Shown here one piece after another: positions 1,203-48,585 of a DNA stretch of 64,000 bases. The stretch is from Nitrosopumilaceae archaeon. GTDB lineage: Archaea > Thermoproteota > Nitrososphaeria > Nitrososphaerales > Nitrosopumilaceae. The position numbers were made by a program, and so were the translations under genes. Under the pieces are notes generated by a model that worked only from the letters and a program-made list of their open reading frames with translations, was not told the origin of the DNA and ran no database searches. Where the stretch lies: assembly GCA_965200155.1 (NCBI GenBank), contig CBDATR010000010.1, positions 224,001 through 288,000 on the forward strand, in the 5' to 3' direction. How positions within the stretch are numbered: position 1 is the first letter of the stretch; each line of letters begins with the position of its first letter.

Positions 1203-1676
1203 ATGACAGAGCCCGCAGAGAAGATAAAGAATGTGATAAAGGTTCTGTACGGGACCGGAGTTGCACGATACGTACCCAAGGATATTCGGTTCGAATACTC
1301 CAGAACGGGCAGGATTCGAAGCGTGTACAAGGACACGACGCTATTATGTACGCTGAGGCCTGACGGGGGCCTGGCACTTGGCATACCGCTCGCCCAGATG
1401 TTGCTTAGTAGCTCGCGCTTTTTGGAGTCCTGCGTAGAGATAAGTGCAGATGCAGTTCCTTTTGTTAAGGAGGGACGTAGCGTCTTTGCCAAACACGTAG
1501 TCAGATGTGGCAGTAATGTTGCAGTATCTGCAGATACGCCGGTCATATACCAAGGCAGGGTGATTGCCATAGGCAGGGCCGTACTCGGCGCCAGTATGCT
1601 AGCAGGATGCAGTAGGGGAGTGGCCATACGTGTTCGTAAGGGCTTAAAAGGAAGAGAGGTAATGCCAGAGACATGA
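1203..1676 (+). CDS. PUA-domain RNA-binding protein (archaeosine TGT C-terminal-like)
   Basis: SRTGRIRSV...LRPDGG and PFVKEGRSVFAKHV...GVAIRVRKG PUA motifs; start placed at ATG 1203. Confidence 0.8.
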   Translation: MTEPAEKIKNVIKVLYGTGVARYVPKDIRFEYSRTGRIRSVYKDTTLLCTLRPDGGLALGIPLAQMLLSSSRFLESCVEISADAVPFVKEGRSVFAKHVVRCGSNVAVSADTPVIYQGRVIAIGRAVLGASMLAGCSRGVAIRVRKGLKGREVMPET

Positions 1677-2017
1677 TGCGCGGAAGGAGAGGGCGCGACG
1701 TGCGTCGCAGGATGGACAAGATGGGCATGGATATGACCAATATAGACGACGTAAGGGAGGTAATCATACGCACAGAGTCCAAGGAGTATGTAATTACAAA
1801 TCCGGCAGTGAATCGAATGGATAACAAGGAGAGTACAATATTCATGGTAACCGCCAATGGATACGAGGAGAGAGAACCGGAGGTACCCACATATCCGGAG
1901 GAAGATATAGAGATGATATGTATGAGAGCCAACGTCGACAGGGATGCAGCCATATCGGCACTGACAGAGTCTGACGGGGAGCTGGCTACGGCATTATTGC
2001 GGCTCCAGTCCAGCTGA
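1673..2017 (+). CDS. nac: Nascent polypeptide-associated complex protein
   Basis: RRMDKMGMDM...VREVIIRT NAC domain, C-terminal UBA-like EEDIEMI...GELATALLRL. Confidence 0.9.
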   Translation: MMRGRRGRDVRRRMDKMGMDMTNIDDVREVIIRTESKEYVITNPAVNRMDNKESTIFMVTANGYEEREPEVPTYPEEDIEMICMRANVDRDAAISALTESDGELATALLRLQSS

Positions 2018-4263: not shown

Positions 4264-5658
4264 ATGACAGTAGATATGGTGATAGTAGATTCTCATGTGG
4301 TATTCCCACAGGGCATAGTCGACAAGAATATAGTAATAGACGAGGGAAGAATAGTCGGTCTTACTACAGATGTTCCCGCATGTGACCAAAAGGTGCGGGG
4401 GGATGGTTTGCTGTCAGTACCCGGTCCCATTGATCCCCATGTTCATTATGGCGTATATTCTTCCATAGACAAGGCAGCGGAGACGGAATCACACGCAGCT
4501 GCCATTGGAGGCATTACTACCATGATGCGAATGATGAGGTTGTGGGAACCATTCTCATCAGGACTTCAGCGCCAACTTGATGCCTCGGCCAACACGCACT
4601 ACATAGACTATACTGCACATGCGTCAATCTTCACACACCGGCAAATATCCGAGATGGAATACTGTGCAGAGAGAGGGGTGGCATCCTTCAAGATATACAT
4701 GAATCTGGGCGGCGAAATAGGACATGTCTATATGGATATGCCACCATATTCCACCGAACTTTGTGAAGATAGTGTAGATGTGACCGATGATATAGTGGAG
4801 GAGACTATTAGGGTAGCCGCGAATATGGGTTGCCCCGTATTAATTCATGCAGAGGACTATGAATCATGCGAGTGTGGCATGAAGGAGGCCAAAAAAGAGA
4901 AGCAAGACGGACTGGCTGCGTGGTCCAAGAGCAGGGATCCCCATTATGAGGCAAAGGCAATAAAAAAGGCATGCCGGTTTGGACGCAAATATGGCTGCGT
5001 GCTATACTTTGTGCACATAGGATCCCAAGTTGCACTGGACCAGATCATGGCAGAGCGCCAATTGGGGACAAGCATACGCGTGGAGAGTTGCCCGCACTAC
5101 ATGGTACTCTCCCATGAAAACAGAAACGATCATCTGGCCAAGGTGATGCCACCCATACGTGCCAATTCCGATAATAATTCGGTCTGGAGTGCAGTGAGCC
5201 AGAATCGTATAGATACCATAGGTACAGACCATGTTGCCAACCGACTGGCACGAAAAGTGGGCTCTGATGTCTGGACATCGTTGGCCGGGTTTCCGGGGAT
5301 TGGGACGATGATCCCAATCCTGCTAAGCGAGGGCGTAAATCGTAACAGAATATCCCTAGAGCAGTTCATCAGGTTGACCAGTGTAAATACGGCAAAGATC
5401 TTCTCCATGTATCCAAAAAAAGGATCATTGGAGGCAGGTACGGACGCAGACATATCCATGCTAGACCTGAAACTGGAGCGAACAGTCACAGCAGATATGT
5501 TCGGAGGGTTCTCTGATTATTCTCCGTATGAGGAATTGTGTCTGCGCGGTTGGCCAGTAAGAACTATTGTGCGAGGGTCTGTGATTGCCGAAGATTTTTC
5601 CGTGGTGGGGAAACGGGGTCACGGAAAATTAGTGTCAAGACCGGATACATGTATATGA
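4264..5658 (+). CDS. Cyclic amidohydrolase (dihydroorotase/hydantoinase/allantoinase family)
   Basis: PGPIDPHVH, GGITT, HAED, ESCPHY, GTDH, KKGSLEAGTDADI motifs. Confidence 0.9.
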   Translation: MTVDMVIVDSHVVFPQGIVDKNIVIDEGRIVGLTTDVPACDQKVRGDGLLSVPGPIDPHVHYGVYSSIDKAAETESHAAAIGGITTMMRMMRLWEPFSSGLQRQLDASANTHYIDYTAHASIFTHRQISEMEYCAERGVASFKIYMNLGGEIGHVYMDMPPYSTELCEDSVDVTDDIVEETIRVAANMGCPVLIHAEDYESCECGMKEAKKEKQDGLAAWSKSRDPHYEAKAIKKACRFGRKYGCVLYFVHIGSQVALDQIMAERQLGTSIRVESCPHYMVLSHENRNDHLAKVMPPIRANSDNNSVWSAVSQNRIDTIGTDHVANRLARKVGSDVWTSLAGFPGIGTMIPILLSEGVNRNRISLEQFIRLTSVNTAKIFSMYPKKGSLEAGTDADISMLDLKLERTVTADMFGGFSDYSPYEELCLRGWPVRTIVRGSVIAEDFSVVGKRGHGKLVSRPDTCI

Positions 5659-5715
5659 AATACAAAGACGGTATTGACAGGGGAAACGGGGTCACGGAAA
5701 ATTAGTGTCAAGACC
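5607..5715. repeat. 36-bp direct repeat flanking a 37-bp unique insert (unit 1)
   Basis: GGGGAAACGGGGTCACGGAAAATTAGTGTCAAGACC at 5607-5642 and 5680-5715. Confidence 0.95.
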
Positions 5716-42121: not shown

Positions 42122-43815
42122 GTATGAGTTCACGTGTTTTGATCACATAATAAGATAGAATGCATCCCAGTTTTTTAATTATAACTGCATTCTGGCAGCA
42201 ACCTCGTTCATTACAGAAAGGCCCTGAGCCCTCCATGTCTGAACACATGATACAAATGTAGACATGCGGCGCATTGCCCTTTCGCCACCCTTTATCTGAC
42301 CACTGATCTTGCGGAATACCACTGCGTATCGCAAAGCCTGCTCCGCTGGATTGTTGGTGGGCTCCACACTGTCATATTCTAAGAATACGAACATGCATGG
42401 TATGGCCTTATTCAATCCTTTTACCTTCTTTTGTAGTTCAGTATCATCAACATCACAGTACTGATGCAGAATGGATTCTGCTCCTGTCTCAAATGAGTGT
42501 CGTAATTGCGCGGACGGCCCGCAGTGATTCAGGGATTCCCGTGCGCTCCGGAACAATCCTTTCAGGTCATTGTCAAGTTTGATCCGGGCGTCCTGAGCAC
42601 CGGGATCAATATAGAATCCTGCATGTAATGCCTGGGTATCGCGCAATAAATGCGCCCAACACAACTGGTGCTTCCCACCGTCATCAAACCGGCGGTACAC
42701 AACGTACCTGTCCGTTACTATCGCTCCCTGGTAACCGTTCAGGTATTTGTTCACTACATTTGAACTCCTACTTTTGTCATATATGGACATCATCCACTCT
42801 TCGGCTCGCATCCCCCATACCCAGCCACGCCTACCCGCCAGTGATATACCAGTTTCGTCCACATGAATGCTGGGTGATTTTATTATATTTTCATGAATTG
42901 TTTCCATAAATGATTCACATGCATCGGCGGCCCTGGCAATTATGTTGTTTACTGCACCCACAGATATATTCAGGCCGAAGAGATCCTTCGAAATTACAGG
43001 TATGCGTTTTATTGGAATCTTTTCCGCACGCAATGCAGTGATGGCACCGCATAATTGAACCCCAAAACTACCACTCTTTGGGACGCCCGCTGCTGGGGCC
43101 AGTTGTTTTTTGCCGCACTTGCATGCAGCCATTTCTATCATATGGTGGGCCTCCTCTATTCTGGCTGGTATTAATTCCGTTATGTGTCGTTGTTTCCAAC
43201 CAATTTTTGTCATTATATTGCCGCACTCACATAGTGGAGTATGCTCAAAGGTGTGATGCACTACTCTGCCGGGGTTGTGGTAACGGGAAACCCCCTTGTG
43301 TCCCTTTTGAGCGCCAGCCTTTTTGGCTGATTTCGTACTGGCTTCTGTCTGTTGCTTATTATCTCCCTGTTTTCGCTTCTGCTCCTCCTGTTTTCGCTTC
43401 TTGTACTGGAGGGATTGAAGGGATGGTGGCGAGTGAGCATTCTCATAATATTTAAGTCGCGTTGTGAGTACCGCAATTTTCCTGTCTTTTTCTACTAATT
43501 CCTCTTTTAATTCACTTACATAATTTCTAATAATTTGGAAATCTTGTATATGATTTCGTATTTCTTTTATGGTGTGTGACATATATGCTTCCAATACTCT
43601 CACACGTTCCTTGTAATGTGCAAGATCTTTCTTGTAATCCTCAATATCTTTCTTGATAGACGCAAGGGTATCCTGAAGAAGTTTATTTTCCAGTTCCAAT
43701 TCCTTATAGGACCGGCGTCTTCTCATTAGATTCTTATTGCAAATTTGGTATTTAAGTAAAATATTGCCATACCAATCTATATCTTAGTGAATGATCAAAA
43801 CACGTGAACTCATAC
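42122..43815 (-). mobile_element. Single-ORF IS66-family element, intact, TSD GTGGGTTC
   Basis: 24-bp perfect TIR GTATGAGTTCACGTGTTTTGATCA; 8-bp duplication. Confidence 0.97.
42179..43726 (-). CDS. IS66-family transposase
   Basis: HSPPS, GAQKGHKG, Zn finger, HVDETG, VTDRY, QLCWAHLLRD, PTNNPAEQALR. Confidence 0.95.
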   Translation of the reverse strand: MRRRRSYKELELENKLLQDTLASIKKDIEDYKKDLAHYKERVRVLEAYMSHTIKEIRNHIQDFQIIRNYVSELKEELVEKDRKIAVLTTRLKYYENAHSPPSLQSLQYKKRKQEEQKRKQGDNKQQTEASTKSAKKAGAQKGHKGVSRYHNPGRVVHHTFEHTPLCECGNIMTKIGWKQRHITELIPARIEEAHHMIEMAACKCGKKQLAPAAGVPKSGSFGVQLCGAITALRAEKIPIKRIPVISKDLFGLNISVGAVNNIIARAADACESFMETIHENIIKSPSIHVDETGISLAGRRGWVWGMRAEEWMMSIYDKSRSSNVVNKYLNGYQGAIVTDRYVVYRRFDDGGKHQLCWAHLLRDTQALHAGFYIDPGAQDARIKLDNDLKGLFRSARESLNHCGPSAQLRHSFETGAESILHQYCDVDDTELQKKVKGLNKAIPCMFVFLEYDSVEPTNNPAEQALRYAVVFRKISGQIKGGERAMRRMSTFVSCVQTWRAQGLSVMNEVAARMQL

Positions 43816-43850
43816 GTGGGTTCAGGTGAATTTGTGCCAAAAAAAAAAAC

Positions 43851-43942
43851 GTATGAGTTCACCTGTGTCTAAATTTACGCATAACTGATCGCGACAGTTA
43901 ATGTGATTTGTGCATAAGATTCCAGAAGACGTGAACTCATAC
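43851..43942 (+). mobile_element. MITE-1, TSD AAAAAAAC
   Basis: TIRs and 8-bp duplication. Confidence 0.97.
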
Positions 43943-44034
43943 AAAAAAACATCCATCATACGAGCATTTTTTAGTGGAACATGCGTTGTGCATTATAGTT
44001 GCTTCATACAGGTTTTAACTTGCAACAGAGAACT

Positions 44035-44700
44035 ATGTTTTATGGCATAGTATGTACATTGGCGTGCACCGCTATTCTGGGTGAGGCTCATGCGCACACG
44101 CTGGACTCAATGGAGGGGTATCGTCTAGAGATAGGATGGATGAATAGTCCACCTTATTCCGGAGAGGTAAATGCCATAGTCTTACACATAAGCCCAATGA
44201 TGCCAGGGCTGGAACTGGAAGAGCAGCCATTTAGAGACGGCGTAGCAGGTCTACGAGACACCCTAAAGATGCAGCTGGTCTCTGCAACTTCCAGTCTCAC
44301 ATTGAGACTGGATCCTGACCCCGACATACCCGGCAAATATTATGTGTTTACCAAAATAAACAGGCCAGGCTTCTATCAAGCCAATCTTATAGGCACCATA
44401 AATGACGCCAACATTAACATCAGTATGCACCCGCCTCAAGTACGCAACGCCGAGCATATCACGTTTCCTCAGGAATATGGTATGATATACGATGTAGTTG
44501 CAACACAGGATATGCTACAGGAGAGATTGGACAACATTACACTTTCACACCAAGCGGAGTTTGAAGAGATTCGCCAAGAAATAGACATACAGGAACAACC
44601 TGTAGAACCAACGCTGCCATACGTAATTGCAGGTATTGGGGTAGTTATGGGAGCAGTGGCCATGGGCATGGCTGCCAAGACATACAGAAGGCTAGGATAG
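44035..44700 (+). CDS. Hypothetical surface protein (signal peptide, C-terminal TM)
   Basis: AHAH cleavage site, YRLEIGWMNSPP, C-terminal anchor. Confidence 0.75.
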   Translation: MFYGIVCTLACTAILGEAHAHTLDSMEGYRLEIGWMNSPPYSGEVNAIVLHISPMMPGLELEEQPFRDGVAGLRDTLKMQLVSATSSLTLRLDPDPDIPGKYYVFTKINRPGFYQANLIGTINDANINISMHPPQVRNAEHITFPQEYGMIYDVVATQDMLQERLDNITLSHQAEFEEIRQEIDIQEQPVEPTLPYVIAGIGVVMGAVAMGMAAKTYRRLG

Positions 44701-44789
44701 ATCTAGCATCATCATAAGAGTGAGCGCGCGACCAAATGTAATACCGGCAGTGCCATACAGAAGGCTAGGATAGATCTAGCACCATCATA
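44681..44789. repeat. 36-bp direct repeat (1 mismatch) flanking a 37-bp unique insert (unit 2)
   Basis: CATACAGAAGGCTAGGATAGATCTAGCAYCATCATA at 44681-44716 and 44754-44789. Confidence 0.95.
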
Positions 44790-45664
44790 TCTCTAGCCGC
44801 GCTGACCGATCCGTGTATGCGGCGGGCTTCCTCCAGTTGTACCGATTCATCTACATACCTGGCAGAGAAGTGTGTCAGTACTAGATTGACAACGCATGCA
44901 TTCTTGGCCAGAGTTGCAGCTTCATGTGCCGTAGTGTGTCGCGTTTCTTCAGCGCGCCTGGCCATATTTTGAGCAAAAGTTGAGTCAAATATCAAGTAGT
45001 TACAACATGTGAAAAAGTTCTCTAGCTGTTTGGTAGGTCTTGTGTCTCCCGAATATCCAATTTTAATACCCGGTCTGCGCTTTCCCAATACCTGAGCAGG
45101 AGTAATAGTGCGTCCGGATACATCCACACTTTTTCCTCGTTGGAGTTGTGACCATAACCGTCCTTTAGGCACACCCAAGGCTTTTGCCTGATCTGGATAG
45201 AACTGTCCGGGCTTCTCCTTCTCCTCAAGTACATACGAGTATGCAATTATGCCATGATCCGCACTACAGGCCCTTACCGTATACTGATCAGTCTGGCAAA
45301 CAACGCCGTCAGCAATATCACACACACTAAGATCAAAGGACGGCCTAAAGTCCAGCATCTCCATATTGAGCTCAATGAACCTCTTGGTTCCCCGGGGACC
45401 GTAAATTGAGAGCGGCCTCTGGCGCTTCTGCAACGACATTGTTTGAAGCAGGCCCAGAGCCCCGAGACAGTGATCACCATGCAAGTGTGTTATGTATATG
45501 CTCATCTTCTTGTTCCAACCCAGACCTGCCTTGCCATATGCCATCTGCGCTCCCTCACCGGCATCAAACATCAGTATCTCGCCTCCTCTATTCACGCATA
45601 TGCACGGATTATTCCTCTTTTTTGTAGGAAGTGATGCGGAAGTGCCCAAAAATATTATCTGCAT
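44765..45664 (-). CDS. rnz: Ribonuclease Z
   Basis: FLGTSAS, FDAGEGAQ, THLHGDH, YSGDT, LTHFSARY. Confidence 0.95.
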   Translation of the reverse strand: MQIIFLGTSASLPTKKRNNPCICVNRGGEILMFDAGEGAQMAYGKAGLGWNKKMSIYITHLHGDHCLGALGLLQTMSLQKRQRPLSIYGPRGTKRFIELNMEMLDFRPSFDLSVCDIADGVVCQTDQYTVRACSADHGIIAYSYVLEEKEKPGQFYPDQAKALGVPKGRLWSQLQRGKSVDVSGRTITPAQVLGKRRPGIKIGYSGDTRPTKQLENFFTCCNYLIFDSTFAQNMARRAEETRHTTAHEAATLAKNACVVNLVLTHFSARYVDESVQLEEARRIHGSVSAARDMMVLDLS

Positions 45665-45872
45665 TTAGACACACTATTCACGCGCGCCTTTAAACTCACC
45701 GTCACTAGGCTGGAAAAGCATCATGAATACATGTAGAGTCATCCACATCTATTCACGTAAAGACAGAACTGTTGCCGCTTCATGGCAGAATTAATGATTG
45801 TGCATAAATTTGAATATAGGCGAACTCATGCTAAATAACCCCCGTAATTTATCGTACGCGAATGCCCCAGAT

Positions 45873-46114
45873 GTAACCGTTTAGGTCAAGTTAAGTATGA
45901 GTTCACGTCTTCCGGAATCTTATGCACAAATCACATTAACTGTCGCGATCAGTTATGCGTAAATTTAGACACAGGTGAACTCATACCAAGTTAAAGATCA
46001 ACACCTAGACGGTAAATTAGTGGGCATGTGGGAGGCGCCATAATAGAAAAAGCAAGAACATACATGTTCGCCGTGTATTTTGGACAGTTGTCCGGAGGTG
46101 ACCTAAACGGTTAC
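45873..46114 (+). mobile_element. MITE-2 with nested MITE-1
   Basis: Perfect 16-bp TIR GTAACCGTTTAGGTCA/TGACCTAAACGGTTAC; flanks GCCCCAGAT/GCTCCAGAT. Confidence 0.92.
45895..45986 (-). mobile_element. MITE-1, TSD CAAGTTAA
   Basis: TIRs and 8-bp duplication. Confidence 0.97.
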
Positions 46115-47050: not shown

Positions 47051-48585
47051 TATAGCGGTCACCATAAGTCTTTGAGAACATGGCACCTCGTTCCTGGATG
47101 GTACATGGCTTTGGCTTGTCACCATTATTCCCGCCCTGACGCCTCCGGTTGGGCGGGTAGCGGTTCCCTGCCCCCCGGACGACACGCTCTGCCGCCCCAT
47201 ACAGAGAAACCGGTTACTAAACGCCGCGTTGATATCGGCGTGAAATTCCTGGTTACATATTGAATGTGTCCCTAGTTGATCGTGATTTGTCGTCAACGTG
47301 TCCACACACGTCATAGGTCTGGCTCGTTGGGCGGGTAAACCGCTCCCTCGTGTATTTCGCTGGCACAGCCACCAATTCAATCCCCAGCGCCTCGCACTTT
47401 TGCTCCACTCTCCGGCGGAACACGCCTACCCGGTTCTCGCGCATGGAGCGGTTCATCATTCTTTTGTGGTTCCCACCATGACTGGTCATTGATTTCGGTG
47501 ATAAATCCTCTAGTACCACCTTGTCCACACCTGATGTCACAGCATTTATCCATGCGAATATTATCCAAATATTGCCTGACCGCTAGTACTACCTTGTCCA
47601 CACCTGATGTCACAGCATTGACTATTCTATTCATGGTGTCATTCGTGATATTATTCGCCTGCTGCCTCAACTGGTTGATTTTCTTTTCGATCTTTCGCTT
47701 TCTGCGCTTACCCTTTCTGGATTTAATACTCTGTAGGTAACGGATCTCCCGCAATATGGAACGATGCCTCATGTCGTGAATCATTGTTCCACCATTCGTG
47801 TCGGCTGTTACAACCAGGTGTTTCCTGCCGACATCCACGCCACGAATGACACCGGTTGTCACATGCCTTTCGGGAACGATTCCAACATTGATATGAATCT
47901 CGAATTTGCGTTCTCCTGGAAGTCCTCTTGTCTGTTCTCTCGACTAGTTTGAATGAGCGCATGTTCCAGGAATGAACGATTGGCTTTGTCGTTCTCGCGA
48001 CACCAAAACCCGACAAGTATAGTTTGCGAGAACCGCGCCTTATCGGCGGACTCACACATGAAAGTATGATTCTTTTATTGTCACGCCGGTGTGGTATGTA
48101 ATCAGAATGATCCTCGTACGCGCGCCTACACGCGATAGGCGCCTGTAATATGGCGCCCCGGCCATAGTTAACTGGTAACTTGTGCACCAATTCAATATCA
48201 CGACGCCACTTTGTTAATTCCAAGAATAGACCATTTGTATAACCGTTCTAGAACGTGGTAGCTGATTCATGTAGAGTGGATCGCCCTTCTTAAGATTGTA
48301 TGGTGACTTGGCGGACTCGTTCCTATTCTTGACCTTGGCCGGATCATGCTTCAATTCTAGAGTGGTTCCGGGCATATCATAACCGCCAAGACTGATCTCG
48401 TATACGGCTCTCTATTATAGACACAATCGGATGTATGACCAAATATCTTGGTACGCCGGGAGGATTCCCTATCCGTTTTCAACGGTATTCCGGGTTATGT
48501 CATCCATTATCTGGTGATTCTACTCTAGTAGTGGTTCTATAAAGTACGGTTCTATACCCGGCAGAGACTTATGATGGGCGTTATA
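47051..48585 (-). mobile_element. tnpB: TIR-bounded element carrying a frameshifted tnpB (copy 1)
   Basis: RuvC motifs GVDVG, VVLEDL, SQT..VCGH, HADINAA in shifted frames; TIRs TATAGCGGTCACCATAAGTCTTTG / CAGAGACTTATGATGGGCGTTATA. Confidence 0.88.
47511..47619. repeat. 36-bp direct repeat (1 mismatch) flanking a 37-bp unique insert (unit 3)
   Basis: TAGTACYACCTTGTCCACACCTGATGTCACAGCATT at 47511-47546 and 47584-47619 (one-base boundary ambiguity). Confidence 0.95.

Follow-up and report, generated by a model that had tools for sequence, protein, structure and literature searches.

The window, by which we mean the whole stretch of 64,000 nucleotides of archaeal DNA analysed here, contains two convergent genes whose 3' ends are separated by a short composite repeat, hereafter called Unit 2. 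The gene on the plus strand (43999-44700) encodes a 233-aa protein without a Pfam family, and it faces, on the minus strand, a gene of the metallo-beta-lactamase fold (44765-45664, 299 aa) whose product resembles RNase Z. This product matches Pfam Lactamase_B_2 at 3.1e-12 and reaches 21.1 bits with the tRNase Z model Lactamase_B_4, below the cut-off of 27; the name rnz is reasonable, if weakly tested. Just upstream of the plus-strand gene lie the ORF of an IS66-family transposase (515 aa, 42179-43726, minus strand) and a group of short repeats with a common end motif (43796-43942). Unit 2 itself consists of two 36-nt direct repeats (44681-44716 and 44754-44789), identical at 35/36 positions and spaced 73 nt from start to start, and of a single-copy 37-nt insert between them (44717-44753), which matches nothing nearby and is unrelated to its flanks. 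The borders are sharp, the outer flanking bases of the two copies being different on each side, and a repeat scan of 44300-45200 returned this pair as the sole direct-repeat family. At fixed spacing, the probability of at least 35 matches in 36 is 2.7e-20, with about 1e-14 such dyads expected per window, and the contribution of chance to the origin of the dyad is negligible.

The left copy covers the last 20 nt of the plus-strand gene, including its TAG stop at 44698-44700, and the right copy covers the stop of rnz (44765-44767) together with the last seven codons and one further nucleotide of that gene. Both copies contain CTAGGATAG, at 44692-44700 on the left and at 44765-44773 on the right. 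The ORF ends in the two copies bear out what a sequence-only reading of this DNA had claimed, namely that the 36-bp target carries in this motif the stops of both genes, and that each gene retained a stop in its own copy, the plus-strand gene on the left and rnz on the right, with 37 bp between. When one copy and the insert are removed in silico, the ORFs run at 43999-44700 (+) and 44692-45591 (-) and overlap by 9 bp, the overlap holding both stops, which agrees with the earlier suggestion that the duplication separated two overlapping convergent genes. The lengths and ends of both ORFs are the same with and without the insertion, and the proposed neutrality of the event is thus upheld for the proteins. 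They are untouched because the duplication exceeds the overlap, so that each gene has its own end. The single mismatch between the copies is a T at 44709 against a C at 44782. The former position is non-coding, 9 nt beyond the stop of the plus-strand gene, just as the sequence-only reading had placed it, and the latter opens a GTG (Val) codon of rnz, in which the letter of the left copy would encode Met.

Among the 40 relatives searched, even the closest are distant, with rnz proteins 54-59% identical to the one in the window, and in seven genomes of the same genus the plus-strand gene (42-53% identity, tblastn) and rnz are likewise adjacent and convergent. The two stops share 6 bp in two of these congeners, abut in three and are separated by 122 and 339 bp in the remaining two, and tight tail-to-tail packing (overlap or abutment, 5/7) is thus the usual state in the genus. 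It had been expected that relatives would show the two genes overlapping by 9 bp without an insert; this was borne out only in part, the repeat-insert-repeat structure and the exact 9-bp overlap each being found in 0/7 syntenic congeners. At the mismatch codon, two congeners encode Val, five Ser and none Met, and the absence of Met favours the right, coding copy as the unchanged one, so that a substitution in the left, non-coding copy is more likely. The presence of one mismatch, in the copy where the base is non-coding, together with the Val common to 2/7 congeners, fits the earlier description of the insertion as aged. A search of metagenome contigs with the rnz protein for an empty-site allele gave 88 pattern matches, none of them a relative.

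The assembly from which the window is taken amounts to 2.38 Mb in 51 contigs and is 87.6% complete. In public assemblies, eight runs from three studies were matched, of which seven contain at least half of the sampled words, and four were compared in detail. Run X1, which may be the source sample of the genome, and runs X5 and X6 of a second study each contain a contig of 2008 bp that aligns to 43913-45920 free of differences and gaps, and a 1611-bp contig from an RNA library (X3) covers Unit 2 at 44008-45618, such contigs being informative on presence, not on transcription or processing. The structure had been held to be real rather than an assembly artefact, and this is now backed by identical contigs that span it in runs of two studies. 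No joint skipping the 73 bp was found in the contigs of the four runs, from which a rare empty allele could be missing since contigs drop rare variants.

The same genome possesses a large CRISPR array and its own adaptation machinery. The array, on contig C9, is composed of 289 repeats of exactly 36 nt, 287/289 of them identical, and of 288 spacers, of which 16 are 35 nt long, 85 are 36 nt, 101 are 37 nt (the mode), 63 are 38 nt and 15 are 39 nt. The duplication in Unit 2 (36 nt) therefore equals the length of the resident repeat, and its insert (37 nt) equals the mode of the resident spacers. A Cas4g/Cas1g fusion is encoded by an open frame of 549 aa, which reaches 710.7 bits where the NCBIfam cut-off is 560, and Cas2 by a 91-aa frame that matches TIGR01573 at 35.4 bits, the cas4/1 and cas2 frames both being intact; Cas3g, Csb2, Csb1 and the I-G Cas3-extension protein were also found around the array with NCBIfam models. 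The large subunit Cas8g/Csx17 (TIGR04113) had no match in the 87.6% complete assembly. Among five relatives with Cas4g/1g this model matches only one (G001), which provides at least one positive for it, and it has no match in 14 control genomes either. In the I-G gene order the large-subunit gene would presumably stand upstream of csb1, at C9:98716-100325. An IS-type transposase (DDE_Tnp_4 with an HTH domain) occupies this place.

Unit 2 is one member of a genome-wide family. A census made with our own scripts and ORF heuristics, not gene calls, gave 74 isolated repeat pairs of 30-44 nt at periods 71-75, compared with 84 spread over 61 other periods (45-110), these 84 being mostly tandem repeats. 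At periods 70-76, 72 dyads score at least 33/36, 48 of them perfect, and about 47-50 are left after removal of repeat-family copies, tandem-like cases and low scorers on small low-GC contigs; the genome carries roughly 50-70 ectopic insertions of the Unit 2 kind. In our own selection of 14 perfect dyads listed outside tandem repeats, the repeat is 36 nt long in five, 37 in seven, 38 in one and 40 in one, and the period ranges from 71 to 74. The steadiness of the repeat length while the period varies indicates that the duplication is fixed and the insert variable, as in CRISPR. The ectopic inserts have a mean length of 36.7 (n=72), against 37.1 for the array spacers (n=288), and are unrelated to one another, those of the other units being unrelated also to the 37-mer of Unit 2.

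The window holds three such units, all at period 73. Unit 1 (5607-5715; 36+37+36 nt, copies identical) falls on the 3' end of an amidohydrolase ORF, whose C-terminus it alters, the stop-to-stop frame being 484 aa in the present sequence and 495 aa once the insertion is removed. Unit 3 (47510-47618; 36+37+36 nt, copies 35/36 identical), in a high-depth repeat region, splits the remnant of a TnpB-like (OrfB_IS605) gene on the minus strand into frames of 188 and 109 aa. Two congeners were sampled as controls, in stretches of 400 kb each that we chose ourselves. In the one with orthologous Cas4/1 and an array of 36-nt repeats (G006), three isolated dyads with period 72 were found in 400 kb, and in the one without a Cas4/1 match (G003), 0-1 candidates, the remainder being coding tandem repeats; the first 400 kb of contigs C10 and C24 of the window's own genome contain 16 and 13 dyads, respectively. 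These counts suggest, for the two relatives sampled, that the units are confined to genomes with the integrase, and ectopic integration is probably not limited to the genome of the window.

We consider it highly probable that Unit 2 arose by off-target (ectopic) spacer integration, catalysed by the genome's own type I-G Cas4g/Cas1g fusion with Cas2. The chemistry of Cas1-Cas2 integration is established, and in regular adaptation the 36-bp target is the array's first repeat. At the locus in the window, the integrase would have joined both 3' ends of a 37-bp prespacer to opposite chromosomal strands 36 bp apart, the same cut spacing as it uses on its 36-bp CRISPR repeat, and repair of the two single-stranded gaps would then have copied the 36 bp, leaving a target copy, the spacer and a second target copy. 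These 36 bp would by chance have spanned the 9-bp overlap, so that both convergent genes retained a full 3' end, and the event, having changed neither protein, could be fixed. One base in the non-coding part of the left copy would have changed after integration. For Unit 2 it is the chemistry, the order of events in time and any neutrality beyond the protein sequences that we infer. The surrogate repeat is unlike the CRISPR repeat, which makes Unit 2 most likely an inert scar rather than a working mini-array.

The alternative that survives best, though we give it little credence, is some insertion process unrelated to CRISPR, or a very small mobile element, with target duplications of 36 bp. 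It could draw on the absence of any source or PAM for the insert of Unit 2. The 37-mer occurs at a single site in its own genome at up to three mismatches and nowhere in the 40 relatives; no exact match was found in public viral, metagenome or genome contigs, no blastn match in phages or plasmids, and blastn-short against the assembly was empty. The search for this 37-mer that had been recommended thus found it nowhere else in its own assembly, the 40 relatives and five public collections. Across the family the PAM signal is weak, TTN, the PAM described for a bacterial I-G system (PMC6547450), flanking 6/21 single self protospacers against 12.8% expected (p = 0.044), and the 15/21 without TTN may also be counted for a non-CRISPR process. 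Such a process is, however, at odds with the geometry, since the duplication keeps to 36-37 nt at periods anywhere between 71 and 75, the sum not being constant, and since the fixed length is that of the resident CRISPR repeat and the lengths of the inserts track those of the resident spacers (36.7 vs 37.1). The inserts are unrelated, the 37-mer is single-copy and terminal inverted repeats were not seen; moreover, one insert overlaps a canonical spacer (spacer 58), and the congener without a Cas4/1 match has only 0-1 candidate dyads in its 400 kb. Unit 2 as a transposable element (IS/MITE) was rejected as well, the 37-mer having its one genome site and there being no conserved multi-copy element.

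The origins of other inserts can be traced. A copy of at least 30 nt elsewhere in the genome exists for 36/72 ectopic inserts, for 23 of these at exactly one place; for instance, window positions 1673-1711 (C10:225673-225711) are the single-copy source of the ectopic spacer at C24:237593. Thirteen of the 23 single-copy self sources lie on C10, which makes up 22.7% of the assembly (binomial p = 4.6e-4), and the donors are thus biased. In the array, only 1/288 spacers, number 58 (C9:75210-75246), matches the genome outside the array, and what it matches is itself an ectopic insert (C25:4796-4831), which has 26-28 nt in common with the reverse complement of the spacer. This shared core occurs only at these two places in the genome, which argues that the array and the off-target site each captured a piece of the same absent (foreign) DNA. 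The difference in the share of self between ectopic inserts and array spacers may reflect an autoimmunity filter acting on the array.

The choice of targets is nearly but not fully sequence-blind. In 47 events, the in-register identity of the target to the CRISPR repeat averages 12.94/36, compared with 11.34 (SD 0.29) for random sites, where 0/400 random sets reach 12.94, and with 11.39 (SD 0.35, maximum 12.17) for 74 shifted registers, and there is therefore a weak in-register preference for repeat-like targets. A symmetric target-site logo from 18 unambiguous events had no position above 0.4 bit. A 36-mer that belongs to a multi-copy element and is present at 87 sites behaves as a hot spot or a growing surrogate array, since several of its copies have taken up inserts of spacer size that differ from one another, at period 72-73, and four repeats stand together at one locus (example sites are C10:83012, C24:460667, C24:500845-501062 and C31:2830-2974). 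The junction of cas4/1 and cas2 (C9:70400-70590, L013:18400-18590) contains two ectopic spacers between three copies of a target of about 37 nt, with the stop of cas4/1 in the first copy and the start of the cas2 ORF in the last. In register, the target agrees with the CRISPR repeat at 16/36 positions, including a run of 7 nt at positions 17-23, and the geometry is as in Unit 2, but the genes are co-directional.

A second rival, which we regard as even less probable than a non-CRISPR process, is that Unit 2 is a working mini-CRISPR (neo-array) giving a processed RNA with a role in, for example, regulation or targeting. RNA-library contigs do cover Unit 2, although contigs do not show transcription, and a second spacer in the same register has been gained at 3/69 ectopic loci, from which it follows that the integrase can return to some surrogate repeats. 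The surrogate repeat of Unit 2, however, matches the CRISPR repeat at only 9/36 positions on the plus strand and 12/36 on the minus strand, which is chance level (null mean 11.3), no leader is evident at its position between two convergent gene ends, and its single spacer matches nothing in the collections searched. A functional CRISPR array was rejected on the same two grounds, repeat identity at chance level and the position between convergent gene ends. The least probable account, an assembly artefact or a slippage tandem duplication that later diverged, can appeal to the mis-joining of repeats by short-read assemblies and to the possible identity of X1 with the source sample, but it has against it the identical contigs in two studies, the 37-nt middle unrelated to its flanks, where slippage would either double all 73 nt or put nothing foreign in between, and the existence of about 70 units of the same build with different contents.

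For off-target integration, the survivorship of events fits selection. Outside ORFs of at least 120 aa lie 29/47 events, against 203/600 random sites (Fisher p = 2e-4), and internal to such ORFs 17/47, against 375/600 (Fisher p = 5e-4), location being judged with an ORF heuristic, not with gene calls. Unit 2 is the only one of the 47 events whose target holds two gene ends, and it could be harmless because the long duplication handed each of the two overlapping genes its own end. More generally, a duplication of 36 bp is long enough to copy gene ends and can in this way un-overlap genes, as at Unit 2 and at the cas4/1-cas2 junction.

Unit 2 is a very clean case of a known kind of event, the neo-CRISPR. 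The neo-CRISPRs of Nivala, Shipman and Church (2018, Nat Microbiol 3:310) reportedly share with the present units a spacer-sized insert flanked by a repeat-length duplication of a non-CRISPR target, the ability of sites to take further spacers and the requirement for a resident integrase. According to the sections of the citing literature covered, that study over-produced Cas1-Cas2 of the type I-E system in E. coli, what it presents for other species has been called circumstantial, and off-target spacer integration has been documented mainly under such over-production in E. coli (PMC7054753; bioRxiv 10.1101/148544). In contrast to that study, the insertions in the present genome are natural, fixed and archaeal, they belong to a type I-G system with a Cas4-Cas1 fusion, and roughly 50-70 of them occur in one genome. 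Since the array, the integrase and many source protospacers are in the same genome, the origin of these insertions is traceable event by event. The isolated arrays treated by Shmakov et al. in 2020, in CRISPR J 3:535, are reportedly small, lie far from cas genes and have repeats unlike those of the resident CRISPR. In the portion of the later literature covered, isolated arrays are attributed in part to off-target spacer acquisition (Shmakov et al., 2020, via PMC13142298), and as far as they are described there, the units reported here differ from them in that each has a one-off repeat derived from ordinary coding or intergenic DNA.

A further module for comparison is the type I-U/I-G Cas4/1-Cas2 of Geobacter sulfurreducens, for which the covered parts of the report give spacers mainly of 36 bp, a TTN preceding about half of the unique spacers and a share of chromosome-derived spacers (Almendros et al., 2019, PMC6547450). 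On the basis of those parts, the G. sulfurreducens module and the present genome have in common the Cas4-Cas1 fusion, a similar predominant spacer length and the chromosome-derived spacers, and differ in the frequency of TTN, about half of unique spacers there against 6/21 self protospacers here (PMC6547450). The study scored integration into the CRISPR array in E. coli, and the same parts make no mention of off-target sites. The target-site duplications of IS elements and MITEs are alike in being direct duplications of a target that flank an insertion. They arise by staggered strand transfer followed by gap repair. In the family to which Unit 2 belongs, by contrast, the duplication is 36 bp, and the inserted sequence differs from site to site and has no ends of its own. 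Our literature search found no paper on ectopic spacer integration in sponge-associated archaea, and the part of PMC6697440 covered mentions CRISPR merely as present.

Few clean natural cases of off-target spacer integration are known, and Unit 2 is unusually legible, its borders being sharp and a simple deletion giving a plausible ancestral state. Beyond this one locus, Unit 2 is of interest as part of a record that extends over the whole genome. We tentatively propose, as something a little short of an even chance, that the type I-G integrase misfires often in this lineage and that the misfires are kept, so that they constitute both a record of adaptation and a force acting on gene boundaries. 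If this were true, the genome would be a natural, largely unfiltered record of CRISPR adaptation, in which about half of the captured DNA is self (36/72 ectopic inserts vs 1/288 array spacers), and ectopic integration would be a real mutational force. The donors would be biased, and the integrase would weakly prefer repeat-like targets in register, with the 87-copy 36-mer as a hot spot. The attraction of further spacers by surrogate repeats would then be how new arrays are born. The units allow the ruler of the integrase, its target preference and its raw choice of donors to be read from sequence alone, being presumably free of the autoimmunity filter by which real arrays lose their self spacers. 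For annotators, ectopic units are a source of small insertions that would otherwise be misread as odd tandem repeats or tiny CRISPRs.

The three dyads of congener G006, of about 36-38 nt, are located at C1:867871, 1037483 and 1129538, in a genome of 61% G+C that has a type I-G array of its own. In the genome of the window, a solitary and slightly degenerate copy of the CRISPR repeat lies near a contig end (C43:128228-128263), preceded by sequence that resembles the end of the C9 array leader, and it may represent a second CRISPR locus or the stub of one.
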